Origin: Novakomyces olei
Taxonomy: Eukaryota
DNA: 64,000 bases
Direction of reading: 5' to 3'
Assembly: GCA_016906335.1 (NCBI GenBank)
Contig: JADEYG010000003.1
Location: 1,612,001-1,676,000, forward strand
A program made the position numbers and the translations under genes. The notes below the pieces were generated by a model, which worked only from the letters and a program-made list of their open reading frames with translations, was not told where the DNA came from and did no database searches. This document shows positions 1-53,048 of the stretch, in pieces (position 1 is the stretch's first letter; each line of letters starts with the position of its first letter).

Positions 1-3000
1 GGTTGACCTATTCAATGCGGATTGCAAAGGACTCAAAGCGCTCTGTGAAGAATTAAACGACTCGGTTGACTTATTCAATGCAGAATGCAGCGGACTCAAC
101 GCACTCGTAGATGAATTAAACGACTTCTTAGTCTGGTCGGCGAGTGTTGTAGCACGGCTTGACTTATTCAATGCAGAATGCAGCGGACTCAATCCTGTCT
201 GTGAAGAATTAAACGACTCGGTTGACCTATTCAATGCAGAATGCAAAGGACTCAAAGCGCTCTGTGAAGAATTAAACGACTCGGTTGACCTATTCAATGC
301 AGAATGCAGCGGACTCGATGCGCTCGTCGATGAATTAAACGACTCGGTTGACCTATTCAATGCAGAATGCAAAGGACTCAACGCACTCGTAGATGAATTA
401 AACGACTTCTTAGACTGGTTGGCGAGTGTTGTAGCACCGCTTGACTTATTCAATGCGGATTGCAAAGGACTCAAAGCGCTCTGTAAAGAATTAAACGACT
501 CGGTTGACTTATTCAATGCAGATTGCAGCGGGCTCAACGCACTCGTGGATGAATTAAACGATTTCTTAGACTGGCCGGCGAGTGATTCTGCAGAGCTTGA
601 CTTATTCAATTCAGATTGCAAAGAACTCAAACCTGTCTGTGAAGAATTAAACGACTCAGTTGACTTATTCAATGCAGAATGCAGCGGCCTCAATCCTGTC
701 TGTGAAGAATTAAACGACTCGGTTGATTTATTCAATGCAGAATGCAAAGGACTCAAAGCGCTCTGTGAAGAATTAAACGACTCGGTTGACATATTCAATG
801 CAGAATGGAGCGGACTCGATGCGCTCGACGATGAATTAAACGACTCGGTTGACCTATTCAATGCAGATTGCAGCGGACTCAAACCTGTCTGTGAAGAATT
901 AAAGGACTCGCGTGATTTATTCAATGCAGAATGCAGCGGACTCAACGCACTCGTGGATGAATTAAACGACTTCTTAGACTGGCCGGCGAGTGATTCTGCA
1001 GAGCTTGACTTATTCAATGCAGATTGCAAAGGACTCAAAGCGCTCTGTGAAGAACTAAACGACTCGGTTGACTTATTCAATGCGGATTGCAGCGGACTCA
1101 AACCTGTCTGTGAAGAATTAAAGGACTCGCGTGATTTATTCAATGCAGAATGCAGCGGACTCAACGCACTCGTGGATAAATTAAACGACTTCTTAGACTG
1201 GCCGGCGAGTGATTCTGCAGAGCTTGACTTATTCAATGCAGATTGCAAAGGACTCAAAGCGCTCTGTGAAGAACTAAACGACTCGGTTGACCTATTCAAT
1301 GCGGATTGCAAAGGACTCAATCCTGTCTGTGAAGAATTAAACGACTCAGTTGACTTATTCAATGCAGATTGCAACGGCCTCAATCCTGTCTGTGAAGAAT
1401 TAAAGGACTCGCGTGATTTATTCAATGCAGAATGCAGCGGACTCAACGCACTCGTGGATAAATTAAACGACTTCTTAGACTGGCCGGCGAGTGATTCTGC
1501 AGAGCTTGACTTATTCAATGCGGATTGCAAAGAACTCAAAGCACTCTGTGAAGAATTAAACGACTCGGTTGACTTATTCAATGCAGATTGCAGCGGGCTC
1601 AACGCACTCGTGGATGAATTAAACGACTTCTTAGACTGGTTGGCGAGTGTTGTAGCACGGCTTGACTTATTCAATGCGGATTGCAAAGGACTCAAAGCGC
1701 TCTGTAAAGAATTAAACGACTCGGTTGACTTATTCAATGCAGATTGCAGCGGGCTCAACGCACTCGTGGATGAATTAAACGATTTCTTAGACTGGCCGGC
1801 GAGTGATTCTGCAGAGCTTGACTTATTCAATTCAGATTGCAAAGAACTCAAACCTGTCTGTGAAGAATTAAACGACTCGGTTGACTTATTCAATGCAGAA
1901 TGCAGCGGCCTCAATTCTGTCTGTGAAGAATTAAACGACTCAGTTGACCTATTCAATGCGGATTCCAAAGGACTCAATCCTGTCTGTGAAGAATTAAACG
2001 ACTCAGTTGACTTATTCAATGCAGATTGCAGCGGCCTCAATCCTGTCTGTGAAGAATTAAAGGACTCGCGTGATTTATTCAATGCAGAATGCAGCGGACT
2101 CAACGCACTCGTGGATAAATTAAACGACTTCTTAGACTGGCCGGCGAGTGATTCTGCAGAGCTTGACTTATTCAATGCAGATTGCAAAGGACTCAAAGCG
2201 CTCTGTGAAGAACTAAACGACTCGGTTGACCTATTCAATGCGGATTGCAAAGGACTCAAAGCGCTCTGTGAAGAATTAAACGACTCGGTTGACTTATTCA
2301 ATGCAGAATGCAGCGGACTCAACGCACTCGTAGATGAATTAAACGACTTCTTAGACTGGTCGGCGAGTGTTGTAGCACGGCTTGACTTATTCAATGCAGA
2401 ATGCAGCGGACTCAAAGCGCTCTGTGAAGAATTAAACGACTCGGTTGACCTATTCAATGCAGAATGCAGCGGACTCGATGCGCTCGTCGATGAATTAAAC
2501 GACTCGGTTGACCTATTCAATGCAGAATGCAAAGGACTCAACGCACTCGTAGATGAATTAAATGACTTCTTAGTCTGGTCGGCGAGTGTTGTAGCACGGC
2601 TTGACTTATTCAATGCAGAATGCAGCGGACTCAACGCACTCGTAGATGAATTAAACGACTTCTTAGTCTGGTCGGCGAGTGTTGTAGCACGGCTTGACTT
2701 ATTCAATGCAGAATGCAGCGGACTCAATCCTGTCTGTGAAGAAATAAACGACTCGGTTGACCTATTCAATGCAGAATGCAAAGGACTCAAAGCGCTCTGT
2801 GAAGAATTAAACGACTCGGTTGACTTATTCAATGCAGAATGCAGCGGACTCAAAGCGCTCTGTGAAGAATTAAACGACTCGGTTGACCTATTCAATGCAG
2901 AATGCAGCGGACTCGATGCGCTCGTCGATGAATTAAACGACTCGGTTGACCTATTCAATGCAGAATGCAAAGGACTCAACGCACTCGTAGATGAATTAAA

Positions 3001-6000: not shown

Positions 6001-9000
6001 TGCAGATTGCAGCGGCCTCAATCCTGTCTGTGAAGAATTAAACGACTCGGTTGACTTATTCAATGCAGAATGCAGCGGCCTCAATCCTGTCTGTGAAGAA
6101 TTAAACGACTCGCGTGATTTATTCAATGCAGAATGCAGCGGCCTCAATCCTGTCTGTGAAGAATTAAACGACTCGGTTGACCTATTCAATGCAGAATGCA
6201 GCGGACTCAAAGCGCTCTGTGAAGAATTAAACGACTCGGTTGACCTATTCAATGCAGTATGCAGCGGACTCAACGCACTCGTAGATGAATTAAACGACTT
6301 CTTAGACTGGTTGGCGAGTGTTGTAGCACGGCTTGACTTATTCAATGCGGATTGCAAAGGACTCAAAGCGCTCTGTAAAGAATTAAACGACTCGGTTGAC
6401 TTATTCAATGCAGATTGCAGCGGGCTCAACGCACTCGTGGATGAATTAAACGATTTCTTAGACTGGCCGGCGAGTGATTCTGCAGAGTTTGACTTATTCA
6501 ATTCAGATTGCAGCGGACTCAAACCTGTCTGTGAAGAATTAAACGACTCGGTTGACTTATTCAATGCAGAATGCAGCGGCCTCAATCCTGTCTGTGAAGA
6601 ATTAAACGACTCGGTTGACTTATTCAATGCAGATTGCAGCGGGCTCAATCCTGTCTGTGAAGAATTAAACGACTCGGTTGACTTATTCAATGCAGAATGC
6701 AGCGGACTCAACGCACTCGTAGATGAATTAAACGACTTCTTAGACTGGTTGGCGAGTGTTGTAGCACGGCTTGACTTATTCAATGCAGAATGCAGTGGAC
6801 TCAATCTTGTCTGTGAAGAATTAAACGACTCGCTTGACTTATTCAATGTGGATTGCAGTGGACTCAATCCTGTCTGTGAAGAATTAAGCGACTCGGTTGA
6901 CTTATTCAATGCAGAATGCAGCGAACTCAACGCACTCGTAGATGAATTAAACGACTTCTTAGACTGGTTGGCGAGTGTTGTAGCACGGCTTGACTTATTC
7001 AATGCAGATTGCAAAGGACTCAAAGCGCTCTGTGAAGAATTAAACGACTCGGTTGACTTATTCAATGTGGATTGCAGAGGGCTCAAAGCGCTCTGTGAAG
7101 AATTAAACGACTCGGTTGACTTATTCAATGCAGATTGCAGCGGGCTCAACGCATTCGTGGATGAATTAAACGATTTCTTAGACTGGCCGGCGAGTGATTC
7201 TGCAGAGCTTGACTTATTCAATTCAGATTGCAGCGGACTCAAACCTGTCTGTGAAGAATTAAAGGACTCGCGTGATTTATTCAATGCAGAATCCAGCGGA
7301 CTCAATCCTGTCTGTGAAGAATTAAACGACTCGGTTGACTTATTCAATGCAGAATGCAGCGGCCTCAATCCTGTCTGTGAAGAATTAAACGACTCGGTTG
7401 ACTTATTCAATGCAGATTGCAGCGGGCTCAACGCACTCGTAGATGAATTAAATGACTTCTTAGTCTGGTCGGCGAGTGTTGTAGCACGGCTTGACTTATT
7501 CAATGCAGAATGCAGCGGACTCAACGCACTCGTAGATGAATTAAACGACTTCTTAGTCTGGTCGGCGAGTGTTGTAGCACGGCTTGACTTATTCAATGCA
7601 GAATGCAGCGGACTCAATCCTGTCTGTGAAGAAATAAACGACTCAGTTGACCTATTCAATGCAGATTGCAAAGGACTCAAAGCGCTCTGTGAAGAATTAA
7701 ACGACTCGGTTGACCTATTCAATGCAGAATGCAAAGTACTCAATCCTGTCTGTGAAGAATTAAACGACTCGGTTGACTTATTCAATGCAGAATGCAGCGG
7801 CCTCAATCCCCTCTGTAAAGAATTAAACGACTCAGTTGACTTATTCAATGCAGATTGCAGCGGCCTCAATCCTGTCTGTGAAGAATTAAACGACTCGGTT
7901 GACTTATTCAATGCAGAATGCAGCGGCCTCAATCCTGTCTGTGAAGAATTAAACGACTCGCGTGATTTATTCAATGCAGAATGCAGCGGCCTCAATCCTG
8001 TCTGTGAAGAATTAAACGACTCGGTTGACCTATTCAATGCAGAATGCAGCGGACTCAAAGCGCTCTGTGAAGAATTAAACGACTCGGTTGACCTATTCAA
8101 TGCAGTATGCAGCGGACTCAACGCACTCGTAGATGAATTAAACGACTTCTTAGACTGGTTGGCGAGTGTTGTAGCACGGCTTGACTTATTCAATGCAGAA
8201 TGCAGCGGACTCAATCCTGTCTGTGAAGAACTAAACGACTCGGTTGACCTATTCAATGCAGAATGCAGCGGACTCAATCCTGTCTGCGAAGAATTAAACG
8301 ACTCGGTTGACCTATTCAATGCAGAATGGAGCGGACTCGATGCGCTCGACGATGAATTAAACGACTCGGTTGACCTATTCAATGCAGATTGCAGCGGACT
8401 CAATCCTGTCTGTGAAGAATTAAACGACTCGGTTGACCTATTCAATGCAGATTTCAGCGGACTCAATCCTGTCTGTGAAGAATTAGACGACTCGGTTGAC
8501 CTATTCAATGCAGAATGCAGCGGACTCAACGCACTCGTAGATGAATTAAACGACTTCTTAGTCTGGTCGGCGAGTGTTGTAGCACGGCTTGACTTATTCA
8601 ATGCAGAATGCAGCGGACTCAATCCTGTCTGTGAAGAACTAAACGACTCGGTTGACCTATTCAATGCAGAATGCAAAGGACTCAAAGCGCTCTGTGAAGA
8701 ATTAAACGAATCGGTTGACCTATTCAATGCAGAATGCAAAGGACTCAAAGCGCTCTGTGAAGAATTAAACGACTCGGTTGACCTATTCAATGCAGAATGC
8801 AGCGGACTCGATGCGCTCGTCGATGAATTAAACGACTTCTTAGACTGGTCGGCGAGTGTTGTAGCACGGCTTGACTTATTCAATGCAGATTGCAAAGGAC
8901 TCAAAGCGCTCTGTGAAGAATTAAACGACTCGGTTGACCTATTCAATGCAGAATGCAAAGGACTCAAAGCGCTCTGTGAAGAATTAAACGACTCGGTTGA

Positions 9001-24000: not shown

Positions 24001-26350
24001 ATGCAAAGGACTCAAAGCGCTCTGTGAAGAATTAAACGACTCGCGTGATTTATTCAATGCAGAATGCAAAGGACTCAAACCTGTCTGTGAAGAATTAAAG
24101 GACTCGCGTGATTTATTCAATGCAGAATGCAGCGGACTCAACGCACTCGTGGATGAATTAAACGACTTCTTAGACTGGCCGGCGAGTGATTCCGCAGAGC
24201 TTGACTTATTCAATGCAGATTGCAAAGGACTCAAAGCGCTCTGTGAAGAACTAAACGACTCGGTTGACCTATTCAATGCGGATTGCAAAGGACTCAAAGC
24301 GCTCTGTGAAGAATTAAACGACTCGGTTGACCTATTCAATGCAGAATGCAAAGGACTCAAAGCGCTCTGTGAAGAATTAAACGACTCGGTTGACCTATTC
24401 AATGCAGAATGCAAAGGACTCAAACCTGTCTGTGAAGAATTAAAGGACTCGCGTGATTTATTCAATGCAGAATGCAGCGGACTCAATCCTGTCTGTGAAG
24501 AACTAAACGACTCGGTTGACCTATTCAATGCAGTATGCAGCGGACTCAACGCACTCGTAGATGAATTAAACGACTTCTTAGACTGGTTGGCGAGTGTTGT
24601 AGCACGGCTTGACTTATTCAATGCGGAATGCAAAGAACTCAAAGCGCTCTGTAAAGAATTAAACGACTCGGTTGACTTATTCAATGCAGATTGCAACGGA
24701 CTCAATCCTGTCCGTGAAAAATTAAACGACTCGGTTGACTTATTCAATGCAGAATGCAGCGGACTCAATCCTGTCTGTGAAGAATTAAACGACTCGGTTG
24801 ACTTATTCAATGCAGAATGCAGCGGACTCAATCCTGTCTGTGAAGAATTAAACGACTCGGTTGACTTATTCAATGCAGAATGCAAAGGACTCAAAGCGCT
24901 CTGTGAAGAATTAAACGACTTCTTAGACTGGTTGGCGAGTGTTGTAGCACGGCTTGACTTATTCAATGCAGAATGCAGCGGCCTCAATCCCCTCTGTAAA
25001 GAATTAAACGACTCGGTTGACTTATTCAATGCAGAATGCAGCGGACTCAAAGCGCTCTGTGAAGAATTAAACGACTCGGTTGACCTATTCAATGCAGAAC
25101 GCAGCGGACTCGATGCGCTCGTCGATGAATTAAACGACTTCTTAGACTGGTTGGCGAGTGTTGTAGCACGGCTTGACTTATTCAATGCAGTTTGCAAAGG
25201 ACTCAAAGCGCTCTGTGAAGAATTAAACGACTCGGTTGACCTATTCAATGCAGAATGGAGCGGACTCAATCCTGTCTGTGATGAATTAAACGACTCGGTT
25301 GACTTATTCAATGCAGAATGCAGCGGACTCAATCCTGTCTGTGAAGAATTAAACGACTCGGTTGACTTATTCAATGCAGAATGCAAAGGACTCAAAGCGC
25401 TCTGTGAAGAATTAAACGACTCGGTTGACTTATTCAATGCAGATTGCAACGGACTCAATCCTGTCCGTGAAAAATTAAACGACTCGGTTGACTTATTCAA
25501 TGCAGAATGCAGCGGACTCAATCCTGTCTGTGAAGAATTAAACGACTCGGTTGACTTATTCAATGCAGAATGCAGCGGACTCAATCTTGTCTGTGAAGAA
25601 TTAAACGACTCGGTTGACTTATTCAATGCAGATTGCAACGGACTCAATCCTGTCCGTGAAAAATTAAACGACTCGGTTGACTTATTCAATGCAGAATGCA
25701 GCGGACTCAATCCTGTCTGTGAAGAATTAAACGACTCGGTTGACTTATTCAATGCAGAATGCAAAGGACTCAAAGCGCTCTGTGAAGAATTAAACGACTC
25801 GGTTGACTTATTCAATGCAGATTGCAACGGACTCAATCCTGTCCGTGAAAAATTAAACGACTCGGTTGGCTTATTCAATGCAGATTGCAGCGGACTCAAT
25901 CCCCTCTGTAAAGAATTAAATGACACCTTAGACTGGTCGGCCAGTTTTGTTGTAGGGCACGACCTAGTTAACGTTGAATTAAACCCTTCCACGGACTGGT
26001 CGGCCAGTTCTTGGTCGGCCAGTTCTTGGTCGGCCAGTTCAGTTGTAGGGCTCGACCTATTTAATGCTGAATTAAACCCTTCCTTAGACTGGTCGGCGAG
26101 TTTTGTGGTAGGGCCCGACCGATTAAATGCAGAATTAAACCCTTCCTTAGACTGGTCGGAGAGTGTTGTAGCAGGGATTGGCTTATTCACTTCAGATTCT
26201 AGCGGACTCAATCCGCTCTGTAAAAAATTAAATGACACCTTAGACTGGTCGGTCAGTTTTGTTGTAGGGCTTGACCTATTTAAAGTTGGATTAAATCCTT
26301 CCTCAGACTGGTCGGCAAGTTTTGTTGTAGGGCTCGACCTATTTAACGCT
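1..26350. repeat. Coding tandem array of 63-bp and 93-bp units (roughly 370 units in the window) with higher-order duplications
   Basis: The consensus GACTCGGTTGACCTATTCAATGCAGAATGCAAAGGACTCAAAGCGCTCTGTGAAGAATTAAAC (63 bp) alternates with a variant 30 bp longer. Units degenerate at ~25900-26350. The count is extrapolated from one 2571-bp block that resolves as 29x63 + 8x93. Confidence 0.98.
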
Positions 26351-29300
26351 GACTGCTGAGGACTGATTCCCGTCTTCAACATATTACTAGAGCCGTTAGT
26401 CTCATCAACGCCATGTGTTGCTAAACTGAATTCGGTCTTTGAAGAACTAAACAATTTTTGAGACTGGCCGGTTATTATTGTTGTAGGACTCATTAAGGCG
26501 GTACTGTTCTCCTTATTTCCGATTAAATGTGGAGAACTAGTTTCAAGATATTCAAGGGAAAAAGACATGCTTGCTTTGTGGGTTACTGATGGAGTAGATA
26601 TGACTGCAATGGTCATAGGTGATATGAAGGCATAGGTCATGTTGCGCATAGAAGCAATTTTTTCTGAGCCAAGTAGAGATTGAGCAGATATGGATTCTAA
26701 AGTCGACTTGGAGTTGTGTCCAAAAGAGATAGTTGTAGATACGCCAGAAAGCATATTCGAAACATTGGCATTGGGCCAATAGTTGTTTATGACACTTGTT
26801 AAGGGGGATTTTATACTTTCAGTCTTAAGATTTGCCTTTTTACCGATGAACGGAAGAGACAAAATACCAGTAGACCCGATAGAAAAGGATTCATTAAGAT
26901 TGTCGGCGTTATGTCTGATTACCGCGGATAAAGCATCAACAGAAACAGTCTTTGAAGAAGCATTCAGCATTCCTCCGAGTGACGCTTGCACTGAAAGCCC
27001 CGGTTCTATTGCAGTTGAAGAATTTCGGTGTGGCTTGGTAGGCTGATTGGCCAAACTAAGATTTTTCAAGACCGCGGCGGACACAGCTTTTGTCGGAATG
27101 AAATCGTGCACTGTAGTCTCTTGAATCGAGTTCGCTCGGCCCGTCCCATCAGGTCGCGTATTGACTTTAGATTCGGGAACCGAACCAAGTGTAGTTTCGG
27201 TACTTGAGTTAGTAGGGCCTAGAATGTGCTCCGTGAGAGGCAAATCAATAGCCAGATTGCTGATTCCTGCTTTCGCGTCCTTTTCTACTGTTATTGAACT
27301 GGCAGTAGCACTTGTCAAAGGAGTCAAAGTACTATTTCCGCCATGGCTCTTCAAAGCCTTTTCGACAGGATTGGGATCAAGTTCAACATCAACCCTTTCC
27401 TCGCTCTTATTTCCCGTCTGTTCAAAGTCTAACCAGTCGGAAGTCTCGCCCGTTGTCCAGACCGCTTGGCTCTCGGGCCCACTCGGGCGTCCAAGCCAGA
27501 GCTCATTGTTCCCATTTATACTATTTTCCCTGCTTGATCCGTGATCTGCTGCGGCCTCTGCGTCTTTCTCTGCTCCGCCATACGTTTTGGTCGTAATATT
27601 ATTTATTCTTTTTGGATTATTATATAATCCTTGATTCCCGGTATTAAGGGAAACAGCTGCGTCTGTTGCGAGCGGGTATGGCGGATTGGGAGCGTCTAAG
27701 GCGCTGCTTCTAATGTCCTCAGAACTGCCTTTACTGTCCGTGTGTAAACGGCTCCCGGACAGTTTGGTTCCGATAGCCTTAGCCGTTTTAGCAGACTCGC
27801 CACTTGTAACCACCGTCAGAGACTGCTGATCAGGATGGTTCGGGCTGCTAATTGCAGGCCCGGCCGGACTGCGGATAGCTTTTGTATAGATATCGCTGGC
27901 CATTGAGGACTGTGGGAATTGAAGACTATCGCCAACGTCCCTATTACGTGTCTCAATTTTGGTACCAAGATTGGCATTTTCTACTGATTTTTCCGTCGCT
28001 ATTGCTGTATTATCAACGGTGTTGCCGCTCTCATACCAATTATTGGCTTTTGGCTCGCTCGACGTGGTATATGACGTCGTTATGTTGGGCTTTTTAACAG
28101 TCTTTGCTGTAATTGTGCTCGTAGCTACTCTCGACAAGGGCACGGCTACTTCCTGGGTATTGTGAGCATTTTGATTGGTGGAAGGCCGGCTGCTTCCAGT
28201 ATTGAAGTTTAGTGTTTTCGGCTTTTTTAACACAACAGCGGCGGCTTCGTCTACGTTTGATACTGTTGGCAGAGTTTCTTTTTTAGCTTCATTTATTCCC
28301 GGCCGAGGAGATGAATGTAATGCCTCGGTGTGTTGATCGTCGAAGCGGTGATCAGTTTTTGGATGCCAATGTTCGTCGGACGCGTACATAGGGGGGGTGT
28401 TACCTTTATATACAAAGTGTCCAGGACTGTATGTATGTCCGGCACTTGTTGTTGTATCAAAACTCTTTAGGATTTCTGCTTTCGACGTGTCGACTTTTTT
28501 GGATTGCTCTGGCTTTTCGTTCGCTTTCGGTTCTGGCGTTTGCGAGTTTAAGCTTTGCCAATCCGCTTTTGCTTGATAGTTATATGTGTTTTTATTATCA
28601 CTTAGCTTTTCGGGGCCCTTAAAGTCGAATGCTGAATCCTGCGTCTTTGAACTTGGGTTCGAATTATTCTCAACCATGAAGTTTTGCTCACTGGCCGAAA
28701 CATTATCGTTTCCCAAAAAATGGTCGATGGCAATATCTATATTCCGATCGTTTGTCTTATCCGGAGTCTCTTTATTTTCCAAATCGTTTTCATGAATGAC
28801 ATCGATATCATTGTTGTTGTTGTTTTTATTACTGATTATGGGATCATGGTTTTTCTTTAAATCATTATCGATTTTGACACCATCCCCATTGCTATCCCGA
28901 TCGTTTGTCCTATCCCGAGTCTCTTTATTTTCCAAACCGTTTTCATGACTGAGATCGTTATCATTGATGTTGTTGTTTTTATTACTGTTTATGGGATCAT
29001 GGTTTTTCTTTAAATCATTATCGATTTTGACACCATCTCCATCTCTGTGCTGATCTTCAAGTATCCCAAACCTCGGATCATCCTTTTGTGGCCTGTAATT
29101 TTGATATCTCTCGTTTTTGCCCCCTTCTTTTTCTGCTAAAAAGTCCTGTTTGTTTTCGGACGTATCTGCACCAGCCGACTCTTCGTCTTCTTGAAATTTC
29201 CCAAAACTTTTTTCTTTATTACCATTGCCTTGGGTCGAAATTGGTTGGTTTTTGTTTGGTTTTTCTGAGCCAATTGTACCGTCGTCTAATTCTTTCCCGA

Positions 29301-29979
29301 CTGGTTTCGATCCTGTTCTTACCATTTTATTCTTAGGGTCAATATTTTGAGTCCCAGCTTTTTGGGCAGGCTTTCCTCGCTGTCTGTCATTGGGATATTT
29401 ATCGCTTCTGTGTGCATTAGTAGTCGATTTAGATTCTGGATCTTTGTCAGTGCTTCCGATTAAACTTGGTTTAATCTTGTCCTCTCCAAATGGCCCTTTT
29501 TGCCCGCTATCACGATCTTTACGATTATCATTCGCTTGATAATTATGTGGCGCTTCTGTTTTGTAGACTTGTATGTGCTTGCGGCTACCAGACTCATCTG
29601 GTTTTCTAAAGGGATCTTTGGCTTTTGAGTTTGGTTTTTTGACCTCGTTTGAGTAGGGATAGCGCAGTTTAGATAACACTTTCCTGGTGGCGCCATACGG
29701 TTTGACTTTTGTGAATTTGGTTTGATTGCGGATTGTGTGATTGCTGGAACTTGAATTGGACAATGAATTGTTTGCGCCAAATGTTTTATTCCAATAACGC
29801 TTTGGTCCAAAGGTATAATTGGAAATTGGCCCATTTATCTTAAATGGGCGCTTTGGAAACGGAAAGCTTTGGGCGGTTTTGTGCACTCGGTCGGCTGTTA
29901 CGGTTAGATGTGGACTCTTACCTGTCTGCAGAAGCCGCAGCAATACTATTGATGCCACAAGCCAAAACAGACTTTTCAT
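1..29979 (-). CDS. Giant secreted/cell-surface Ser-rich repeat glycoprotein (mucin/adhesin-like), >=9,993 aa, 3' end beyond the window
   Basis: ATG at 29979 gives MKSLFWLVASIVLLRLLQT (signal-peptide-like). I read this frame codon by codon from 29979 to ~26300 with no stop. It continues in register into the array (FNSSQSALSPLHSALNRSTES) and is still in register at base 1. Array units are multiples of 3; not every unit was checked individually. Confidence 0.9.
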   Translation of the reverse strand, partial: MKSLFWLVASIVLLRLLQTGKSPHLTVTADRVHKTAQSFPFPKRPFKINGPISNYTFGPKRYWNKTFGANNSLSNSSSSNHTIRNQTKFTKVKPYGATRKVLSKLRYPYSNEVKKPNSKAKDPFRKPDESGSRKHIQVYKTEAPHNYQANDNRKDRDSGQKGPFGEDKIKPSLIGSTDKDPESKSTTNAHRSDKYPNDRQRGKPAQKAGTQNIDPKNKMVRTGSKPVGKELDDGTIGSEKPNKNQPISTQGNGNKEKSFGKFQEDEESAGADTSENKQDFLAEKEGGKNERYQNYRPQKDDPRFGILEDQHRDGDGVKIDNDLKKNHDPINSNKNNNINDNDLSHENGLENKETRDRTNDRDSNGDGVKIDNDLKKNHDPIISNKNNNNNDIDVIHENDLENKETPDKTNDRNIDIAIDHFLGNDNVSASEQNFMVENNSNPSSKTQDSAFDFKGPEKLSDNKNTYNYQAKADWQSLNSQTPEPKANEKPEQSKKVDTSKAEILKSFDTTTSAGHTYSPGHFVYKGNTPPMYASDEHWHPKTDHRFDDQHTEALHSSPRPGINEAKKETLPTVSNVDEAAAVVLKKPKTLNFNTGSSRPSTNQNAHNTQEVAVPLSRVATSTITAKTVKKPNITTSYTTSSEPKANNWYESGNTVDNTAIATEKSVENANLGTKIETRNRDVGDSLQFPQSSMASDIYTKAIRSPAGPAISSPNHPDQQSLTVVTSGESAKTAKAIGTKLSGSRLHTDSKGSSEDIRSSALDAPNPPYPLATDAAVSLNTGNQGLYNNPKRINNITTKTYGGAEKDAEAAADHGSSRENSINGNNELWLGRPSGPESQAVWTTGETSDWLDFEQTGNKSEERVDVELDPNPVEKALKSHGGNSTLTPLTSATASSITVEKDAKAGISNLAIDLPLTEHILGPTNSSTETTLGSVPESKVNTRPDGTGRANSIQETTVHDFIPTKAVSAAVLKNLSLANQPTKPHRNSSTAIEPGLSVQASLGGMLNASSKTVSVDALSAVIRHNADNLNESFSIGSTGILSLPFIGKKANLKTESIKSPLTSVINNYWPNANVSNMLSGVSTTISFGHNSKSTLESISAQSLLGSEKIASMRNMTYAFISPMTIAVISTPSVTHKASMSFSLEYLETSSPHLIGNKENSTALMSPTTIITGQSQKLFSSSKTEFSLATHGVDETNGSSNMLKTGISPQQSALNRSSPTTKLADQSEEGFNPTLNRSSPTTKLTDQSKVSFNFLQSGLSPLESEVNKPIPATTLSDQSKEGFNSAFNRSGPTTKLADQSKEGFNSALNRSSPTTELADQELADQELADQSVEGFNSTLTRSCPTTKLADQSKVSFNSLQRGLSPLQSALNKPTESFNFSRTGLSPLQSALNKSTESFNSSQSALSPLHSALNKSTESFNSSQTGLSPLHSALNKSTESFNFSRTGLSPLQSALNKSTESFNSSQTRLSPLHSALNKSTESFNSSQTGLSPLHSALNKSTESFNFSRTGLSPLQSALNKSTESFNSSQSALSPLHSALNKSTESFNSSQTGLSPLHSALNKSTESFNSSQTGLSPLHSALNRSTESFNSSQSALSPLQTALNKSSRATTLANQSKKSFNSSTSASSPLRSALNRSTESFNSSQSALSPLHSALNKSTESFNSLQRGLRPLHSALNKSSRATTLANQSKKSFNSSQSALSPLHSALNKSTESFNSSQTGLSPLHSALNKSTESFNSSQTGLSPLHSALNKSTESFNFSRTGLSPLQSALNKSTESFNSLQSALSSLHSALNKSSRATTLANQSKKSFNSSTSALSPLHTALNRSTESFSSSQTGLSPLHSALNKSRESFNSSQTGLSPLHSALNRSTESFNSSQSALSPLHSALNRSTESFNSSQSALSPLQSALNRSTESFSSSQSALSPLQSALNKSSSAESLAGQSKKSFNSSTSALSPLHSALNKSRESFNSSQTGLSPLHSALNKSRESFNSSQSALSPLHSALNRSTESFNSSQSALSPLHSALNRSTESFNSSQSALSPLQSALNKSSRATTLADQSKKSFNSSTSASSPLHSALNRSTESFNSSQSALSPLHSALNRSTDSFNSSQSALSPLHSALNRSTESFSSSQTGLSPLHSALNKSSRATTLADQTKKSFNSSTSALSPLHSALNRSTESSNSSQTGLSPLHSALNKSRESFNSSQTGLSPLHSALNRSTESFNSSQSALSPLHSALNRSTESFNSSQSALSPLQSALNRSTESFSSSQSALSPLQSALNKSSSAESLAGQSKKSFNSSTSALSPLHSALNKSRESFNSSQTGLSPLHSALNKSRESFNSSQSALSPLHSALNRSTESFNSSQSALSPLHSALNRSTESFNSSQSALSPLQSALNKSSRATTLANQSKKSFNSSTSALSPLHSALNKSTESFNSSQTGLSPLQSALNKSTESFNSSQTGLRPLHSALNKSTESFNSSQTGLSPLQSELNKSNSAESLAGQSKKSFNSSTSALSPLQSALNKSTESFNSSQSALSPLHSALNKSTESFNSLQSALSSLHSALNKSSRATTLANQSKKSFNSSTSALSPLHTALNRSTESFSFSQTGLSPLHSALNKSRESFNSSQTGLSPLHSALNRSTESFNSSQSALSPLHSALNRSTESFNSSQSALSPLQSALNRSTESFSSSQSALSPLQSALNKSSSAESLAGQSKKSFNSSTSALSPLHSALNKSRESFNSSQTGLSPLHSALNKSRESFNSSQSALSPLHSALNRSTESFNSSQSALSPLHSALNRSTESFNSSQSALSPLQSALNKSSRATTLADQSKKSFNSSTSASSPLHSALNRSTESFNSSQSALSPLHSALNKSTESFNSSQSALSPLHSALNRSTESFNSSQSALSPLQSALNRSTESFSSSQTGLSPLHSALNKSSRATTLADQTKKSFNSSTSALSPLHSALNKSTESFNSSQSALSPLHSALNRSTESFNSSQSALSPLQSALNRSTESFSFSQTGLSPLHSALNKSRESFNSSQTGLSPLHSALNRSTESFNSSQSALSPLHSALNRSTESFNSSQSALSPLQSALNRSTESFSSSQTGLSPLHSALNKSSRATTLADQTKKSFNSSTSALSPLHSALNRSTESSNSSQTGLSPLKSALNRSTESFNSSQTGLSPLQSALNRSTESFNSSSSASSPLHSALNRSTESFNSSQTGLSPLHSALNRSTESFSSSQTGLSPLHSALNKSSRATTLANQSKKSFNSSTSASSPLHSALNRSTESFNSSQSALSPLHSALNRSTDSFNSSQSALSPLHSALNRSTESFSSSQTGLSPLHSALNKSSRATTLADQTKKSFNSSTSALSPLHSALNRSTESSNSSQTGLSPLKSALNRSTESFISSQTGLSPLHSALNKSSRATTLADQTKKSFNSSTSALSPLHSALNKSSRATTLADQTKKSFNSSTSALSPLQSALNKSTESFNSSQTGLRPLHSALNKSTESFNSSQTGLSPLDSALNKSRESFNSSQTGLSPLQSELNKSSSAESLAGQSKKSFNSSTNALSPLQSALNKSTESFNSSQSALSPLQSTLNKSTESFNSSQSALSPLQSALNKSSRATTLANQSKKSFNSSTSALSSLHSALNKSTESLNSSQTGLSPLQSTLNKSSESFNSSQTRLSPLHSALNKSSRATTLADQTKKSFNSSTSALSPLQSALNKSSRATTLADQTKKSFNSSTSALSPLHSALNKSRESFNSSQTGLSPLHSALNKSRESFNSSQSALSPLHSALNRSTESFNSSQSALSPLHSALNRSTESFNSSQSALSPLQSALNKSSRATTLADQTKKSFNSSTSALSPLHTALNRSTESFNSSQSALSPLHSALNRSTESFNSSQTGLSPLHSALNRSTESFNSSQSALSPLHSALNRSTESFNSSQSALSPLQSALNRSTESFSSSQSALSPLQSALNKSSSAESLAGQSKKSFNSSQTGLSPLHSALNKSRESFNSSQTGLRPLHSALNKSTESFNSSQTGLSPLHSALNKSSRATTLADQTKKSFNSSTSALSPLHSALNRSTESSNSSQTGLSPLKSALNRSTESFNSSQTGLSPLQSALNRSTESFNSSSSASSPLHSALNRSTESFNSSQTGLSPLHSALNRSTESFSSSQTGLSPLHSALNKSSRATTLANQSKKSFNSSTSALSPLHTALNRSTESFNSSQSALSPLKSALNRSTESFISSQTGLSPLHSALNKSSRATTLANQSKKSFNSSTSALSPLHTALNRSTESFSSSQTGLRPLHSALNKSTESFNSSQTGLRPLQSALNKSTESFNSLQRGLRPLHSALNRSTESFNSSQSALSPLHSALNKSTESFNSLQSALSSLHSALNKSSRATTLANQSKKSFNSSTSALSPLHTALNRSTESFSFSQTGLSPLHSALNKSRESFNSSQTGLSPLHSALNRSTESFNSSQSALSPLHSALNRSTESFNSSQSALSPLQSALNRSTESFSSSQSALSPLQSALNKSSSAESLAGQSKKSFNSSTSALSPLHSALNKSRESFNSSQTGLSPLHSALNKSRESFNSSQSALSPLHSALNRSTESFNSSQSALSPLHSALNRSTESFNSLQRGLRPLHSALNKSTESFNSSQTGLSTLHSALNRSTESFNSSQSALSPLHSALNRSTESFNSSQSALSPLQSALNKSSRATTLADQSKKSFNSSTSASSPLHSALNRSTESFNSSQSALSPLHSALNRSTDSFNSSQSALSPLHSALNRSTESFSSSQTGLSPLHSALNKSSRATTLADQTKKSFNSSTSALSPLHSALNRSTESSNSSQTGLSPLKSALNRSTESFISSQTGLSPLHSALNKSSRATTLADQTKKSFNSSTSALSPLHSALNKSSRATTLADQTKKSFNSSTSALSPLQSALNKSTESFNSSQTGLRPLHSALNKSTESFNSSQTGLSPLDSALNKSRESFNSSQTGLSPLQSELNKSSSAESLAGQSKKSFNSSTNALSPLQSALNKSTESFNSSQSALSPLQSTLNKSTESFNSSQSALSPLQSALNKSSRATTLANQSKKSFNSSTSALSSLHSALNKSTESLNSSQTGLSPLQSTLNKSSESFNSSQTRLSPLHSALNKSSRATTLANQSKKSFNSSTSALSPLHSALNKSTESFNSSQTGLSPLQSALNKSTESFNSSQTGLRPLHSALNKSTESFNSSQTGLSPLQSELNKSNSAESLAGQSKKSFNSSTSALSPLHTALNRSTESFNSSQSALSPLHSALNRSTESFNSSQTGLRPLHSALNKSRESFNSSQTGLRPLHSALNKSTESFNSSQTGLRPLQSALNKSTESFNSLQRGLRPLHSALNRSTESFNSSQSALSPLHSALNKSTESFNSLQSALSSLHSALNKSSRATTLANQSKKSFNSSTSALSPLHTALNRPTESFSSSQTGLSPLHSALNKSRESFNSSQTGLSPLHSALNRSTESFNSSQSALSPLHSALNRSTESFNSSQSALSPLQSALNKSSSAESLAGQSKKSFNSSTSALSPLHSALNKSRESFNSSQTGLSPLHSALNKSRESFNSSQSALSPLHSALNRSTESFNSSQSALSPLHSALNRSTESFNSSQSALSPLQSALNKSSRATTLADQSKKSFNSSTSASSPLHSALNRSTESFNSSQTGLRPLHSALNKSRESFNSSQTGLRPLHSALNKSTESFNSSQTGLRPLQSALNKSTESFNSLQRGLRPLHSALNRSTESFNSSQSALSPLHSALNKSTESFNSLQSALSSLHSALNKSSRATTLANQSKKSFNSSTSALSPLHTALNRPTESFSSSQTGLSPLHSALNKSRESFNSSQTGLSPLHSALNRSTESFNSSQSALSPLHSALNRSTESFNSSQSALSPLQSALNKSSSAESLAGQSKKSFNSSTSALSPLHSALNKSRESFNSSQTGLSPLHSALNKSRESFNSSQSALSPLHSALNRSTESFNSSQSALSPLHSALNRSTESFNSSQSALSPLQSALNKSSRATTLADQSKKSFNSSTSASSPLHSALNRSTESFNSSQSALSPLQSALNKSSSAESLAGQSKKSFNSSTSALSPLHSALNKSRESFNSSQTGLSPLHSALNKSRESFNSSQSALSPLHSALNRSTESFNSSQSALSPLHSALNRSTESFNSSQSALSPLQSALNKSSRATTLADQSKKSFNSSTSASSPLHSALNRSTESFNSSQSALSPLHSALNRSTDSFNSSQSALSPLHSALNRSTESFSSSQTGLSPLHSALNKSSRATTLADQTKKSFNSSTSALSPLHSALNRSTESSNSSQTGLSPLKSALNRSTESFNSSQTGLSPLQSALNRSTESFNSSSSASSPLHSALNRSTESFNSSQTGLSPLHSALNRSTESFSSSQTGLSPLHSALNKSSRATTLANQSKKSFNSSTSALSPLHTALNRSTESFNSSQSALSPLHSALNRSTESFNSSQSALSPLQSALNKSSRATTLADQSKKSFNSSTSASSPLHSALNRSTESFNSSQTGLRPLHSALNKSRESFNSSQTGLRPLHSALNKSTESFNSSQTGLRPLQSALNKSTESFNSLQRGLRPLHSALNRSTESFNSSQSALSPLHSALNKSTESFNSLQSALSSLHSALNKSSRATTLANQSKKSFNSSTSALSPLHTALNRPTESFSSSQTGLSPLHSALNKSRESFNSSQTGLSPLHSALNRSTESFNSSQSALSPLHSALNRSTESFNSSQSALSPLQSALNKSSSAESLAGQSKKSFNSSTSALSPLHSALNKSRESFNSSQTGLSPLHSALNKSRESFNSSQSALSPLHSALNRSTESFNSSQSALSPLHSALNRSTESFNSSQSALSPLQSALNKSSRATTLADQSKKSFNSSTSASSPLHSALNRSTESFNSSQSALSPLQSALNKSSSAESLAGQSKKSFNSSTSALSPLHSALNKSRESFNSSQTGLSPLHSALNKSRESFNSSQSALSPLHSALNRSTESFNSSQSALSPLHSALNRSTESFNSSQSALSPLQSALNKSSRATTLADQSKKSFNSSTSASSPLHSALNRSTESFNSSQSALSPLHSALNRSTDSFNSSQSALSPLHSALNRSTESFSSSQTGLSPLHSALNKSSRATTLADQTKKSFNSSTSALSPLHSALNRSTESSNSSQTGLSPLKSALNRSTESFNSSQTGLSPLQSALNRSTESFNSSSSASSPLHSALNRSTESFNSSQTGLSPLHSALNRSTESFSSSQTGLSPLHSALNKSSRATTLANQSKKSFNSSTSALSPLHTALNRSTESFNSSQSALSPLHSALNRSTESFNSSQTGLRPLHSALNKSRESFNSSQTGLRPLHSALNKSTESFNSSQTGLRPLQSALNKSTESFNSLQRGLRPLHSALNKSTESFNSSQTGLSTLHSALNRSTESFNSSQSALSPLQSALNRSTESFISSQTGLSPLHSALNKSSRATTLADQTKKSFNSSTSALSPLHSALNKSSRATTLADQTKKSFNSSTSALSPLQSALNKSTESFNSSQTGLRPLHSALNKSTESFNSSQTGLSPLDSALNKSRESFNSSQTGLSPLQSELNKSSSAESLAGQSKKSFNSSTNALSPLQSALNKSTESFNSSQSALSPLQSTLNKSTESFNSSQSALSPLQSALNKSSRATTLANQSKKSFNSSTSALSSLHSALNKSTESLNSSQTGLSPLQSTLNKSSESFNSSQTRLSPLHSALNKSSRATTLANQSKKSFNSSTSALSPLHSALNKSTESFNSSQTGLSPLQSALNKSTESFNSSQTGLRPLHSALNKSTESFNSSQTGLSPLQSELNKSNSAESLAGQSKKSFNSSTSALSPLQSALNKSTESFNSLQSALSPLQSALNKSSRATTLANQSKKSFNSSTSALSPLHTALNRSTESFNSSQSALSPLHSALNRSTESFNSSQTGLRPLHSALNKSRESFNSSQTGLRPLHSALNKSTESFNSSQTGLRPLQSALNKSTESFNSLQRGLRPLHSALNRSTESFNSSQSALSPLHSALNKSTESFNSLQSALSSLHSALNKSSRATTLANQSKKSFNSSTSALSPLHTALNRSTESFSSSQTGLSPLHSALNKSRESFNSSQTGLSPLHSALNRSTESFNSSQSALSPLHSALNRSTESFNSSQSALSPLQSALNRSTESFSSSQSALSPLQSALNKSSSAESLAGQSKKSFNSSTSALSPLHSALNKSRESFNSSQTGLSPLHSALNKSRESFNSSQSALSPLHSALNRSTESFNSSQSALSPLHSALNRSTESFNSSQSALSPLQSALNKSSRATTLADQSKKSFNSSTSASSPLHSALNRSTESFNSSQSALSPLHSALNRSTDSFNSSQSALSPLHSALNRSTESFSSSQTGLSPLHSALNKSSRATTLADQTKKSFNSSTSALSPLHSALNRSTESSNSSQTGLSPLKSALNRSTESFNSSQTGLSPLQSALNRSTESFNSSSSASSPLHSALNRSTESFNSSQTGLSPLHSALNRSTESFSSSQTGLSPLHSALNKSSRATTLANQSKKSFNSSTSALSPLHTALNRSTESFNSSQSALSPLHSALNRSTESFNSSQTGLRPLHSALNKSRESFNSSQTGLRPLHSALNKSTESFNSSQTGLRPLHSALNKSTESFNSSQSALSTLHSALNRSTESFNSSQSALSPLQSALNRSTESFISSQTGLSPLHSALNKSSRATTLADQTKKSFNSSTSALSPLHSALNKSSRATTLADQTKKSFNSSTSALSPLHSALNRSTESFNSSTSASSPLHSALNRSTESFNSSQSALSPLHSALNRSTESFNSSQTGLRPLHSALNKSRESFNSSQTGLRPLHSALNRSTESFNSSQSALSPLQSALNKSSRATTLANQSKKSFNSSTSALSPLHTALNRSTESFNSLQSALSPLQSALNRSTESFNSSQSALSPLNSALNRSTESFSSSQTGLSPLHSALNKSSRATTLADQTKKSFNSSTSALSPLHSALNRSTESFNSSTSASSPLHSALNRSTESFNSSQSALSPLHSALNKSTESFNSSQSALSPLHSALNRSTESFISSQTGLSPLHSALNKSSRATTLADQTKKSFNSSTSALSPLHSALNKSSRATTLADQTKKSFNSSTSALSPLHSALNRSTESFNSSTSASSPLHSALNRSTESFNSSQSALSPLHSALNKSSRATTLADQSKKSFNSSTSALSPLHSALNKSTESFNSSQSALSPLQSALNRSTESFSSSQSALSPLQSALNKSSSAESLAGQSKKSFNLSTSALSPLHSALNKSRESFNSSQTGLRPLQSALNKSTESFNSSQTGLSPLESALNRSTESFNSSQTELRPLHSALNKSTESFNSSQTGLSSLQSELNKSSSAESLAGQSKKSFNSSTSALSPLQSALNKSTESFNSLQSALSPLQSALNKSSRATTLANQSKKSFNSSTSALSPLQSALNKSTESFNSSQSALSSLQSALNKSSSAESLAGQSKKSFNLSTSALSPLHSALNKSRESFNSSQTGLRPLQSALNKSTESFNSSQTGLSPLQSALNRSTESFSSSQSALSPLQSALNKSSSAESLAGQSKKSFNLSTSALSPLHSALNKSRESFNSSQTGLSPLQSALNKSTESFSSSQSALSPLQSALNKSSSAESLAGQSKKSFNSSTSALSPLHSALNKSRESFNSSQTGLSPLQSALNRSTESFNSSSSASSPLHSALNMSTESFNSSQSALSPLHSALNKSTESFNSSQTGLRPLHSALNKSTESFNSSQTGLSSLQSELNKSSSAESLAGQSKKSFNSSTSALSPLQSALNKSTESFNSLQSALSPLQSALNKSSGATTLANQSKKSFNSSTSALSPLHSALNRSTESFNSSTSASSPLHSALNRSTESFNSSQSALSPLHSALNRSTESFNSSQTGLSPLHSALNKSSRATTLADQTKKSFNSSTSALSPLHSALNKSTESFNSSQSALSPLQSALNRST
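28745..29040. repeat. Two-copy 153-bp (51-aa) internal duplication in the N-terminal region of the giant protein
   Basis: CGATCGTTTGTC starts at 28745 and 28898. It encodes DGVKIDNDLKKNHDPIxSNKNNN...ENKETxDxTNDR twice. Confidence 0.9.
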
Positions 29980-30682
29980 GATTTATTCCTGACGCATCTG
30001 GTGGCGAAAAGAAAATTTATAGAACCGAGTAAAGGTTTCGTTGATGCTTTTCCGGTTTAAAGTGAAATCCTGGATACATTTGATCCAATCTCTGGCTTTG
30101 TCCGAACGGTCAACAACCTGATGGAAATAGGTCTGTGAACAATGATCAAGCAGGCATAACAAATATTCGAATGGCTGAATGAGCGAGCACCCAATGATAC
30201 AAGAAATGAAATGAAAAAGCAGTTACATGTATGAGAACATTGGTCTGGACAAGTGCATTTAGTCCGGAGTGCCCTTGCTTGAAATCTATTTTTGATTATT
30301 TTTCCTTTCTATTTTCTTCCCCTTTTATTTTCCCCTTTCTTAATAGATTTAGTTTGTTTAAGCTAGCTACGTATAGCGGGTTCAATTACAAATTACGCCC
30401 TTTGTCGCAATAAACCAGCTTTGTACAGGTCAGTCGCACATTTAAGGGATTTTCTACCATTTGTGGTTTAAGGTCAAGCATGGTTCTGGTGTTTAAAGAC
30501 GTCTCGCTATCCCTATTTAAGTATAGTTCCGTTACTTTGACCTCCGACTCGGTCGGTTATCCCATATTTTATGAATAATTCCATAAGACATGTCTCAGAA
30601 CTTTTTTTAATTTATTAACAAAAATAATAAAATTTAAAACTAAAATTTTAATTTTCTTTTGTCTTATTTACTTAAATACTAA

Positions 30683-30685
<3 letters not shown>

Positions 30686-30730
<45 letters not shown>
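30686..30730. repeat. (TAT)n microsatellite
   Basis: About 14-15 consecutive TAT units, seen directly. Confidence 0.95.
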
Positions 30731-31316
30731 TGGGCACTGGGTACAGCCACGGGTCCCTGGCACTCGGTTTGCATTGTCCCAGTTGAAACTGATCTACATC
30801 TAACCATCACGTACAATACCAAAAGCCAATGGCGTGTAACGTATAATTAAAAAAGTTTCACTGGCAATCAGACAAGGCCAGATATTTTTGTACGAAGCGT
30901 AGGAGACCGTACAGTTTGCCTGCGGTCCAAACGAGACGTTGTTGTAAGCAAGTACGCAGGGATGCCATAGAATAAGGTTGTGTTATCAGTGCTGTATCTT
31001 AGTAGATCAGACTCATATTCCTGAAGACGCGTCCACAGTGTACGACTTTTGGGTAAAAACTGTATCTACTATATAATATCGATTGCCACTGAATGATTGA
31101 CCTTTTGAATCATTGTACCTATACACTTTAACCTACTGCTAATCAATGTGAATACTCTATTCAAAAGCATACACCACTCGACACTGTAATCTGACTCTGA
31201 AAAAATTAAAAGGCAGCTGAGCGAGCAGACCATTTATGGCAATTAAACAGCGTCAAACACATCCCGGCGCGATTGATCTGCGGCCCTGTCGGCAGATGAA
31301 TATGCTTTGTGCACGT

Positions 31317-31482
31317 CAGCATTAAAATCCGCACCGTATTATTACTACAGAGCACCAGCAATGAAATCCCCACCATAGAGCTCCAGCAATAAAACCGCAG
31401 TATATTAATACTACGGAGCACCAGCAATAAAATCATACTATATTAACTGTACGCCCGTCAGTAATAAAAATCGCACTATATT
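31317..31482. repeat. Degenerate ~30-40 bp minisatellite (CAGCAATAAAA..C..TAT..TACT)
   Basis: About five imperfect copies starting CAGCA(A/T)T(A/G)AAA or CAGTAATAAAA, upstream of the ankyrin gene. Confidence 0.6.
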
Positions 31483-31751
31483 ATGTAAACCCTGTTGCAC
31501 GCACATTCGCTATGGCAGGCAGGCACCAGCGATCAAACACGGCCACGCTTACAAGTAACCAGGACGAGCGTATAGTGTGTGAGCGATGGCGCAAAAGTCC
31601 GTATGAGCGAGCGATAGACTGACAGCCTACTGATCCTCGATCAACAGGCGAACTGCCGCCTGCTCGCAGCAGGTGGCTTCAGTATTCAGTTTCCCACGTT
31701 TTGTCTTGAGGCGTGGCAATAGTAGACAGTGGCAATATTACACAGCTGGCC

Positions 31752-35651: not shown

Positions 35652-36268
35652 ACTATCAGGCAAATGGAAGGCTGTGGCTTTTACCGTTTTCTTTTTCGCC
35701 GGATATTTTTCAATAAATCACGGGACAATAAAGAGGATGAAGAACTATTCACTGTATTCAAACCACTATCGAGCTAAACAGTCTTTCCGTCTTTTCCCTT
35801 TTCATCATGGCCGGAAAAGTCTTGCAATGAAACGTTTTTATTCGTGAATTGGGGTTGGTTAAGGGCTGACTTTAGACGAGATTTTTCTTTTATTTTATTA
35901 TACAGTTTAGTATTTTCTTGTTTATTTTCGTGTTAATTTAATGTGCCTTGTTCATGTGCGGTTGGAGTTTGCCTCCGGCTTTAATGCCGCGAAACCCTAG
36001 CCCTAAACTGCTATTGTGTTTTTTACATAGGAGGGATTATTTTATGTCTAGTAATGACTGATACTTATACTACTTGAGTCTTGTAGGTGAAAGTTCAAGA
36101 GACTTAATTAGAGCAATAGAGGTGTAGTTCTTGTAAAAATTGAGTAATCGCGTGCATTTGGGAAACCATACAATTTTGCCTTAGGAAATCATACACTTTT
36201 CCTTGCTTATACTTCACTATATTCTGCTACAGCTATGCAAACACAGTACAAAATTCCATACTATTTAC

Positions 36269-36789: not shown

Positions 36790-36807
36790 TCACTGTAAAC
36801 AAAAAAA

Positions 36808-52944: not shown

Positions 52945-53048
52945 CTTTTTGCCGTAATAAGACGCGCGGGCCAAACCGAACGCGCCCAACGGGGAACGAG
53001 CCATTGGTATAAACAGCGTAGGACGCAAAGGTACCGATTGACCGTGAA

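Follow-up and report, generated by a model that had tools for sequence, protein, structure and literature searches.

The stretch analyzed here, called the window, comprises 64,000 nucleotides of contig JADEYG010000003.1 from Novakomyces olei (assembly GCA_016906335.1, positions 1,612,001 to 1,676,000 of the forward strand), and its left part is occupied by a single open reading frame (ORF) on the minus strand that starts at an ATG at 29979, runs for at least 9,993 codons, and is open at its 3' end at the window edge (Table 1). The ORF appears when open ends are allowed in the ORF listing, and it was probably missed by the standard listing because the default setting omits ORFs that leave the window end. 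The full translation contains no stop codon, as a preliminary description of the sequence had proposed, and the visible 9,993 residues have a computed mass of 1,053 kDa and an isoelectric point of 10.3, matching the size of about 1 MDa before glycosylation given there. A TAA is placed in frame two codons 5' of the ATG, making Met-1 the first possible start. The encoded polypeptide shows, from the N terminus, a short hydrophobic leader, a unique region, and a tandem-repeat array directed toward the window edge. In the unique DNA (26360-29979) the minus coding frame has no stop in ~1,207 codons compared with 33, 68, 49, 55, and 111 stops in the other five frames, which excludes chance openness for this part and bears out the description of 3.6 kb of stop-free sequence followed by the array.

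The leader (MKSLFWLVASIVLLRLLQTG) is located at the first ATG after the in-frame TAA, as originally noted, and consists by inspection of M-K followed by a 14-residue hydrophobic stretch. It is the only segment of the 9,993 residues exceeding a Kyte-Doolittle value of 1.6 in a 19-residue window, and the hydropathy scan shows no transmembrane-like segment in the visible protein. In the AlphaFold2 model of the N-terminal region the leader forms a helix (residues 2-18) with a predicted local distance difference test (pLDDT) value of 51-59, the sole confident element of that model. The leader would serve as a cleavable N-terminal signal peptide. The TATAAAT motif upstream of the start is a possible core promoter element. 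A sequence resembling a 5' splice site (GTAAGAGT) straddles codon 20 and was considered as the start of an intron directly after the signal peptide; the only in-frame acceptor gives an intron of 27 nucleotides compared with ~90-170 nucleotides for the neighboring introns, a range taken from two introns deduced in the flanking genes, and GTAAGAGT is probably not a splice site.

The unique region following the leader is polar and of unusual composition. Residues 1-1200 contain no Cys and are composed of 11.8% Ser, 9.5% Asn, 8.7% Lys, and 8.7% Thr, in agreement with the polar, Lys/Asn-rich, and nearly Cys-free character first reported. Hydropathy calculated by window shows residues 51-550 to be strongly polar, with residues 51-250 basic, residues 251-450 acidic and rich in Asn and Asp, and Ser and Thr enriched from about residue 550. 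A 51-amino acid internal duplication is formed by residues 313-363 and 364-414 (40 of 51 identical), and the region carries 21 N-glycosylation sequons. A crude pattern search for hydrophobic β-prone patches outside the leader identifies only MTYAFI (1114-1119) and MTIAVI (1122-1127). The dibasic sites of the preliminary description are present, with fifteen dibasic pairs in residues 1-1250; its example SRKRRG is absent, and the nearest sequence is SGSRKHIQ near residue 131. The AlphaFold2 single-sequence model of the N-terminal 1,200 amino acids has a mean pLDDT of 31.3 and shows no domain, only the leader helix. The N-terminal ~1,190 residues are probably unstructured, a single-sequence model being weak evidence for an orphan protein, and the same model may be compatible with a novel N-terminal fold.

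The protein had been described as without known counterpart, and homology searches with the N-terminal 1,200 amino acids likewise return no relative, with no match among 1.84 billion representative proteins, no sequence match in the PDB, and no usable match in the ESM Atlas. In metagenome contigs 588 pattern matches to the N-terminal protein were obtained, and tblastn confirmed none of them. A Pfam scan of residues 1-1260 (E ≤ 1) identifies no recognizable effector domain of the PA14/Flo5, Als Ig-like, Hyphal_reg_CWP, or Flo11 type; its sole match, TraG-D_C (E 0.11), was judged to be due to chance.

The array is a compound minisatellite assembled from two units, 289 copies of 63 nucleotides encoding 21 amino acids (STESFNSSQSALSPLHSALNK/R) and 83 copies of 93 nucleotides encoding 31 amino acids (SSRATTLADQSKKSFNSSTSALSPLHSALNK), which are mixed with no fixed period. 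The last 18 residues of the longer unit are common to the shorter unit, and STE of the shorter is replaced by SSRATTLADQSKK in the longer. Of the 376 parsed pieces, 372 are exactly 21 or 31 amino acids, a unit count that is a lower bound as the array continues past the window edge. Higher-order periods of 219-408 nucleotides are combinations of the two motifs. There are 71 distinct variants of the 63-nucleotide unit and 24 of the 93-nucleotide unit, with mean identities to the consensus of 91.5 and 94.4%, respectively. None of the 372 full units departs from a length divisible by three, although 75 + 38 distinct base variants occur, and no stop is present in the minus frame of the array, where random change with a uniform mutation spectrum would be expected to create ~6 stop variants. 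The boundary with the unique region is formed by degenerate old repeat units, a decayed edge being usual in natural tandem arrays. The array has a composition of 30.2% Ser, 13.9% Leu, 8.6% Ala, 8.5% Asn, 7.4% Thr, and 4.2% Pro, with Ser and Thr together contributing 37.8% across the array proper (residues 1,331 onward). A total of 712 N-x-S/T sequons is present in the 8,793 residues that follow residue 1,200, and the array is net positive with 712 Lys and Arg compared with 361 Asp and Glu.

Table 1. Features of the giant gene and of the flanking sequence, with positions in the window
Feature	Position	Strand	Basis or remark
Giant ORF, 9,993 amino acids, 3'-open	1..29979	-	ORF listing, open ends allowed
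Compound minisatellite array, leaves window edge	1..25989	-	Repeat parsing
Antisense open frame across array, 8,785 codons, 5'-open	2..26359	+	ORF listing
Exact 2,619-bp internal duplication, offset 2,571 bp	~8001-10619 and 10572-13190 (8001..13190)		Longest exact repeat
Degenerate old repeat units, residues ~1207-1330, e.g. RSSPTTKLADQSEEGFNPTLN	25990..26361	-	Protein-level likeness to array units, minus frame
Unique N-terminal region, residues 21-1206	26362..29919	-	Stop count, codon usage, hydropathy, homology searches
5'-splice-site-like sequence GTAAGAGT	29914..29921	-	CTAAC and CAG come after it within 27 nt
Start codon (29979-29977) and signal-peptide-like leader, residues 1-20, MKSLFWLVASIVLLRLLQTG	29920..29979	-	Translation
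TATAAAT motif	30015..30021	-	42 nt upstream of ATG; read from sequence
Ankyrin-repeat ORF, 1,312 amino acids	31713-35651	+	Ank_2, E 2.4e-48; divergent from giant gene
HODM_asu-like paralogue (PF11927)	40781-41944	-	E 2.7e-79; divergent from and beside the next
HODM_asu-like paralogue (PF11927)	42860-44074	+	E 4.1e-83; divergent from and beside the preceding

A second open frame, absent from the preliminary description, extends over the array on the plus strand. This frame has no Met, ends at the array edge, and contains 22.5% Asp and Glu and 7.2% Cys. Its translation is a clean 21-residue periodic sequence (LFNAECSGLKPLCEELNDSVD), acidic and with two Cys per unit. Long periodic arrays can yield two protein-like open frames, and the plus frame is read as a by-product of the array's repetition. 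Single-base changes able to make a plus-frame stop number 13, and 12 of them also replace an amino acid or create a stop in the minus frame, so that the plus frame would be kept open as a by-product. No stop is found between the 1,207 unique minus-strand codons and the array, and translation must therefore continue into the array. Seven flanking ORFs (3,882 codons), themselves scoring 0.12-0.21, served to train a codon-usage log-odds measure. For the unique part this measure is +0.14 in the minus frame and negative in the five other frames; for the array it is +0.19 in the minus frame compared with +0.089 in the plus frame. Replacements among the units number 741 in the minus frame with a mean BLOSUM62 score of +0.25, 488 of them being exchanges of the G/A, S/T, K/R, or H/Q type, compared with 849 replacements of mean score +0.02 in the plus frame. 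Continuation, codon usage, replacements, and the stop analysis thus form four points that favor the minus strand as the coding strand. Choosing the strand by codon-position entropy fails, as the third positions of both open frames coincide. A reassignment of CUG was considered and rejected, as the flanking genes encode Leu most often by CTG (28%) and the array uses mostly TTG; the standard genetic code is therefore assumed.

The unique part is covered by contigs from three DNA runs of two studies, which show two haplotypes at roughly equal depth. The substitution analysis covers the 40 listed rows, with 68 further rows outside it; 31 of the 40 substitutions are within the ORF, where 11 are synonymous, 20 are non-synonymous, and none creates a stop, compared with ~22% synonymous changes and ~4% stops at random. 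The single indel among the listed variants, at 30449, is upstream of the ORF, and the stop-free frame first described is accordingly free of stops and indels in the unique part in the contigs of all three runs, among the listed variants. The assembly may have been built from one of the runs, which are thus not fully independent, and contigs from short reads allow no check on the array length. The two haplotypes are seen in runs X1 and X2 across 26000-31500 (for example at 28071-28126 and 28902-28936), which suggests that the host is heterozygous diploid, dikaryotic, or mixed. The giant gene is preceded by a 1.7-kb intergenic region with an (AAT)n microsatellite at ~30674-30740, at which the contigs from the public runs break.

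The 21-residue unit is composed of three heptads, STESFNS / SQSALSP / LHSALNK. At the heptad angle the unit has a hydrophobic moment of 0.326, a value attained by 5 of 1,000 shuffled sequences, whose mean is 0.142. In an alignment of 70 segments of 283 residues the F, L, N, and P columns show little or no variation. Each unit has a single Pro, ends in Lys or Arg, and contains two invariant Asn, each placed in an N-x-S sequon. The strict 7-residue periodicity, the invariant positions, and the richness in Ser, Leu, Ala, and Asn do not fit a plain Ser/Thr stalk. A periodicity of seven residues is equally compatible with an amphipathic helix or coiled coil and with a three-sided β-solenoid with seven residues per side.

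AlphaFold2 was run for the array on a 70-row self-alignment, and the best model is a three-sided β-solenoid with strands formed by LHSALN, TESFNS, and a short SA, and with turns at K/R-S and L-S-P. Phe-5, Leu-12, Leu-15, and Leu-19 of the unit would be conserved inward-type residues in such a structure. Superposition of the array model using VIA-align gives Z 17.9 and a root mean square deviation (rmsd) of 3.6 over 274 aligned residues with the PL6 lyase 7o7a_A, Z 17.3 (rmsd 2.9, 233 aligned) with the antifreeze structure 3p4g_A, Z 16.7 (rmsd 3.3, 253 aligned) with HMW1 2odl_A, Z 15.8 (rmsd 4.0, 260 aligned) with UpaB 6bea_A, Z 17.6 (rmsd 9.7, 268 aligned) with CsgA 8c50_A, and Z 14.1 (rmsd 3.3, 209 aligned) with the Candida glabrata Awp1 A-domain 7o9q_B. 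These superpositions describe the geometry of the model, a parallel β-helix, and do not validate it. A stronger proposal drawn from the model, that the array is one continuous, self-templating three-sided β-solenoid with a 21-residue coil per unit and ladders of Asn and Ser, forming a rigid nanofiber of at least 372 coils and at least 0.18 µm, is regarded as doubtful.

Searches with the array return no accepted relative. The degenerate repeat pattern of the array DNA has no match in metagenome contigs, the array has no match among longer proteins, and the ESM Atlas has nothing for it at 0.9 or above. Two matches to proteins of near length, a bacterial leucine-rich repeat protein (7% coverage) and a Mycena tetratricopeptide repeat protein, are read as compositional. 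The array's Pfam matches, among them Spectrin_SYNE1 and YkyA, were discounted because they add up numerous weak alignments to low-complexity periodic sequence, and the PDB profile matches (M-like protein, coronavirus HR1, and myosin) were rejected on the same ground, matches to coiled-coil profiles arising from the 7-residue period.

The explanation preferred here, which is judged moderately probable as a whole, is that the locus is a real orphan gene for a giant secreted repeat protein akin to the repeat glycoproteins of fungal walls and matrices. The gene would be a single, essentially intron-less unit on the minus strand of a fungal genome, encoding a protein that enters the secretory pathway and has at least 9,993 residues and a mass of at least 1.05 MDa before glycosylation, with a signal peptide, a Cys-free polar region, and at least 372 repeat units forming a rod or brush at the surface or in the matrix. 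The protein would be translocated co-translationally with removal of the leader, its Ser and Thr residues heavily O-mannosylated and its exposed sequons N-glycosylated, and it would then be delivered to the wall or the extracellular matrix. There the array may act as a long regular rod or brush that coats the surface or matrix and carries the polar N-terminal region outward. The visible array would measure ~0.18 µm as a solenoid and ~2 µm if extended, using spacings of 4.8 Å per solenoid coil and ~2.5 Å per extended residue. The number of copies and hence the length may be tuned by unequal recombination. The giant surface or matrix glycopolymer suggested in the preliminary description is retained in part, as a very large secretory repeat protein with no described relative and with 712 sequons; its stalk is not of the typical disordered Pro/Thr/Ser mucin type.

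Several points weigh against this explanation. The 9,993 codons are a lower bound, as the frame leaves the window at base 1 and the C terminus is placed beyond it. No RNA run is among the sequencing runs found to contain the locus, which bears on transcription, strand, and splicing. No homologue of the gene was found in any collection searched, so conservation cannot support function. The silent changes in the array barely separate the strands, with 8 observed of the 15 possible changes that are silent only in the minus frame and 7 observed of the 10 possible that are silent only in the plus frame. The best array model has a mean pLDDT of 50.5 and a predicted template modeling score of 0.49, with values of 26-37 for the other four models; Foldseek finds nothing for it at E ≤ 0.001, and the coiled-coil profile matches fit a helical reading equally well. 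A rigid solenoid and a dense N-glycan brush are partly in conflict, as a buried Asn ladder would escape glycosylation. The exact 2.6-kb duplicate in the array could be an assembly artifact.

An alternative is that the array is a polyprotein of the type of the Kex2-processed repeat proteins (KEPs) or repellents, whose processing in the Golgi, at one KK per 31-residue unit, would release 80 or more surface-active or signaling glycopeptides of 73-199 residues, mostly 73-136. The protein combines a signal peptide and internal repeats with 83 KK, one inside each 31-residue unit (spacings 31-199 residues, mostly 73, 94, 115, and 136), and the units are amphipathic at the 7-residue period. The KEP pipeline accepts KK as a fallback and needs only a signal peptide, repeats, and sites between the repeats (PMC6339444), and the amphipathic repeats of Ustilago maydis Rep1 are processed to wall-bound peptides (PMC4617103). 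However, the array has no KR or RR, the usual Kex2 sites, KK being used "to a lesser extent" according to PMC6339444. The 289 units of 21 residues carry single basic residues only, the KK is followed by no STE13-type dipeptides (the sequence being KKSF), and the predicted fragments far exceed typical KEP peptides in length. Processing of this kind is considered unlikely.

A different objection accepts the 5' gene as real and questions the array, which would not be faithful coding sequence but an over-expanded assembly or a fresh minisatellite in a decaying gene. The array contains the exact 2,619-bp duplicate at a 2,571-bp offset, a zone also found as 2,760 bp at 99.3% identity, which reflects either recent unequal exchange or local over-expansion in assembly. 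Within the array 5% of 31-mers and 20% of 101-mers are unique, and short reads cannot check the array because so few are; the lack of an RNA run with the locus and of a homologue would also be consistent with this objection. In contrast, 81% of 1,001-mers are unique, which together with the diversity of 71 + 24 unit variants and the decayed edge suggests a natural array resolvable by long reads. The objection is further weakened by the lack of any stop or frame-breaking length in the 372 units despite 113 base variants, and a spurious array is held to be improbable. Finally, that the plus strand codes for the array as an acidic Cys/Leu-rich repeat protein (LFNAECSGLKPLCEELNDSVD) starting left of the window and ending at 26359, with minus-strand coding confined to the unique part, is very improbable, because its 8,785 open codons, positive codon-usage score, and array variation that favors neither strand clearly are set against a minus frame entering the array without a stop, the lack of a Met, a stop exactly at the repeat end as a by-product would show, lower codon-usage and replacement scores, stop-creating changes already selected against (12 of 13) as minus-frame replacements, and Pfam matches (COG6_N, DASH_Dam1, and others) rejected as summed and non-specific of coiled-coil type.

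The neighbors of the giant gene are an ankyrin protein, two HODM_asu-like proteins, an Aa_trans permease, an aldo-keto reductase, a major facilitator superfamily (MFS) transporter, a cytochrome P450, a glutathione S-transferase (GST), a glycoside hydrolase family 5 (GH5) glycosidase, an Rtt106-like protein, and a ribosomal L7Ae protein, and from their sequences these appear to be ordinary fungal genes with few introns. The best named relatives of the permease are 50-54% identical and are a mixture of Basidiomycota and Ascomycota, with a best match overall of 78%; the host is therefore a fungus with no close annotated relative in the collections searched, and the giant protein is absent from the libraries for this reason. 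The ankyrin-repeat ORF has a G+C content of ~55% (32001-34000) compared with 41-46% in adjacent sequence. An AT-rich stretch (36001-38000, 33% G+C) contains the L7Ae/L30e-family gene (36928-37395, plus strand). Long open frames that match no family overlap this gene in antisense. The run of genes at 45728-59908, with the Aa_trans permease, the aldo-keto reductase, a two-exon MFS/TRI12-like transporter, the cytochrome P450, the GST N-terminal domain, and the GH5 glycosidase, may be a detoxification or metabolite cluster.

Compared with known systems, the giant protein would work most like the wall adhesin stalks of yeasts (Flo, Als, Epa, and the Hyr/Iff-like Hil proteins). The likeness is in a signal peptide followed by a long stalk rich in Ser/Thr and sequons and derived from an intragenic minisatellite, with a number of repeats that is expected to vary. 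The canonical yeast wall adhesin anchored by glycosylphosphatidylinositol (GPI) is composed, as described in bioRxiv 10.1101/2022.02.09.479577, of a signal peptide, a folded effector domain, Ser/Thr repeats, β-aggregation sequences, and a GPI signal. In a clear difference with these families, the giant protein has no recognizable N-terminal effector domain and no sequence similarity to them; the crude pattern search gave two short β-prone patches. The long subset of Hil proteins has a median of 1,745 amino acids and Hil1 has 50 repeats of 44 amino acids, compared with at least 9,993 amino acids here.

Rep1 and the KEPs share with the giant protein secretion, a destination at the fungal surface that is predicted here, an almost complete composition of amphipathic tandem repeats, and recurring dibasic sites, and the signal peptide and at least three internal repeats are present. 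Rep1, however, has 652 amino acids and 12 repeats split by Kex2 sites (PMC4617103), and the giant protein is ~15 times larger. Unlike KEPs, its array has only KK and only in the 31-residue units, so that it would pass just the KK fallback of PMC6339444. At the DNA level, compound minisatellites with two motif sizes and an irregular period are present in the cell wall protein genes of C. glabrata (PMC2566889). As in these, the 63- and 93-nucleotide motifs share one end, are shuffled, have lengths in multiples of three, and are inside an ORF; the megasatellites of the same study have longer motifs, of 126-429 bp, and the longest array reported there reaches 9.6 kb compared with at least 26 kb here.

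The geometry of the array model resembles that of bacterial β-helical fibers, including FHA/HMW1-type TpsA proteins, autotransporter passengers, the antifreeze region of the Marinomonas ice-binding adhesin, and the curli protein CsgA, which are long rods with one coil per short repeat and ladders of Asn and Ser. The likeness would be in working, not in ancestry, and no common descent is involved. The identities are 2-12%, the model is of low confidence, and the protein would follow a eukaryotic endoplasmic reticulum and Golgi route with probable glycosylation. In the signaling mucins Msb2 and Hkr1 a signal peptide precedes a large repeat ectodomain rich in Ser and Thr, an arrangement also seen here, and Msb2-type proteins have ~1,300 amino acids, one transmembrane segment, and a cytoplasmic tail. 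The giant protein differs in its Leu/Ala-rich and strictly periodic repeat and in the lack of a transmembrane segment within the visible 9,993 residues. To our knowledge, the repeat proteins of fungal walls and matrices that have been studied to date have one to a few thousand residues and a recognizable binding domain. A search of full-text literature, in which motifs are unsearchable and supplementary tables that could contain long proteins (such as the KEP lists of PMC6339444) are outside the scope, gave no secreted repeat protein from a fungus with such a size or with this unit.

The protein offers a direct target for mass spectrometry, as trypsin should release 21-residue peptides because the unit ends in Lys or Arg, and the unit provides a simple test case for the folding of a Ser/Asn/Leu heptad triplet as a solenoid. 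If the preferred explanation is true, fungal surfaces can bear fibers as large as giant adhesins of bacteria or mucins of animals, intragenic minisatellites can reach about three times the length of the longest C. glabrata array reported (9.6 kb, PMC2566889), and genes of this kind would be systematically overlooked by gene callers and short-read assemblies. Should the array in addition fold as the solenoid nanofiber, it would be a eukaryotic counterpart of the bacterial β-helical fiber adhesins or curli and the largest secreted non-enzyme protein known in fungi, without a homologue.

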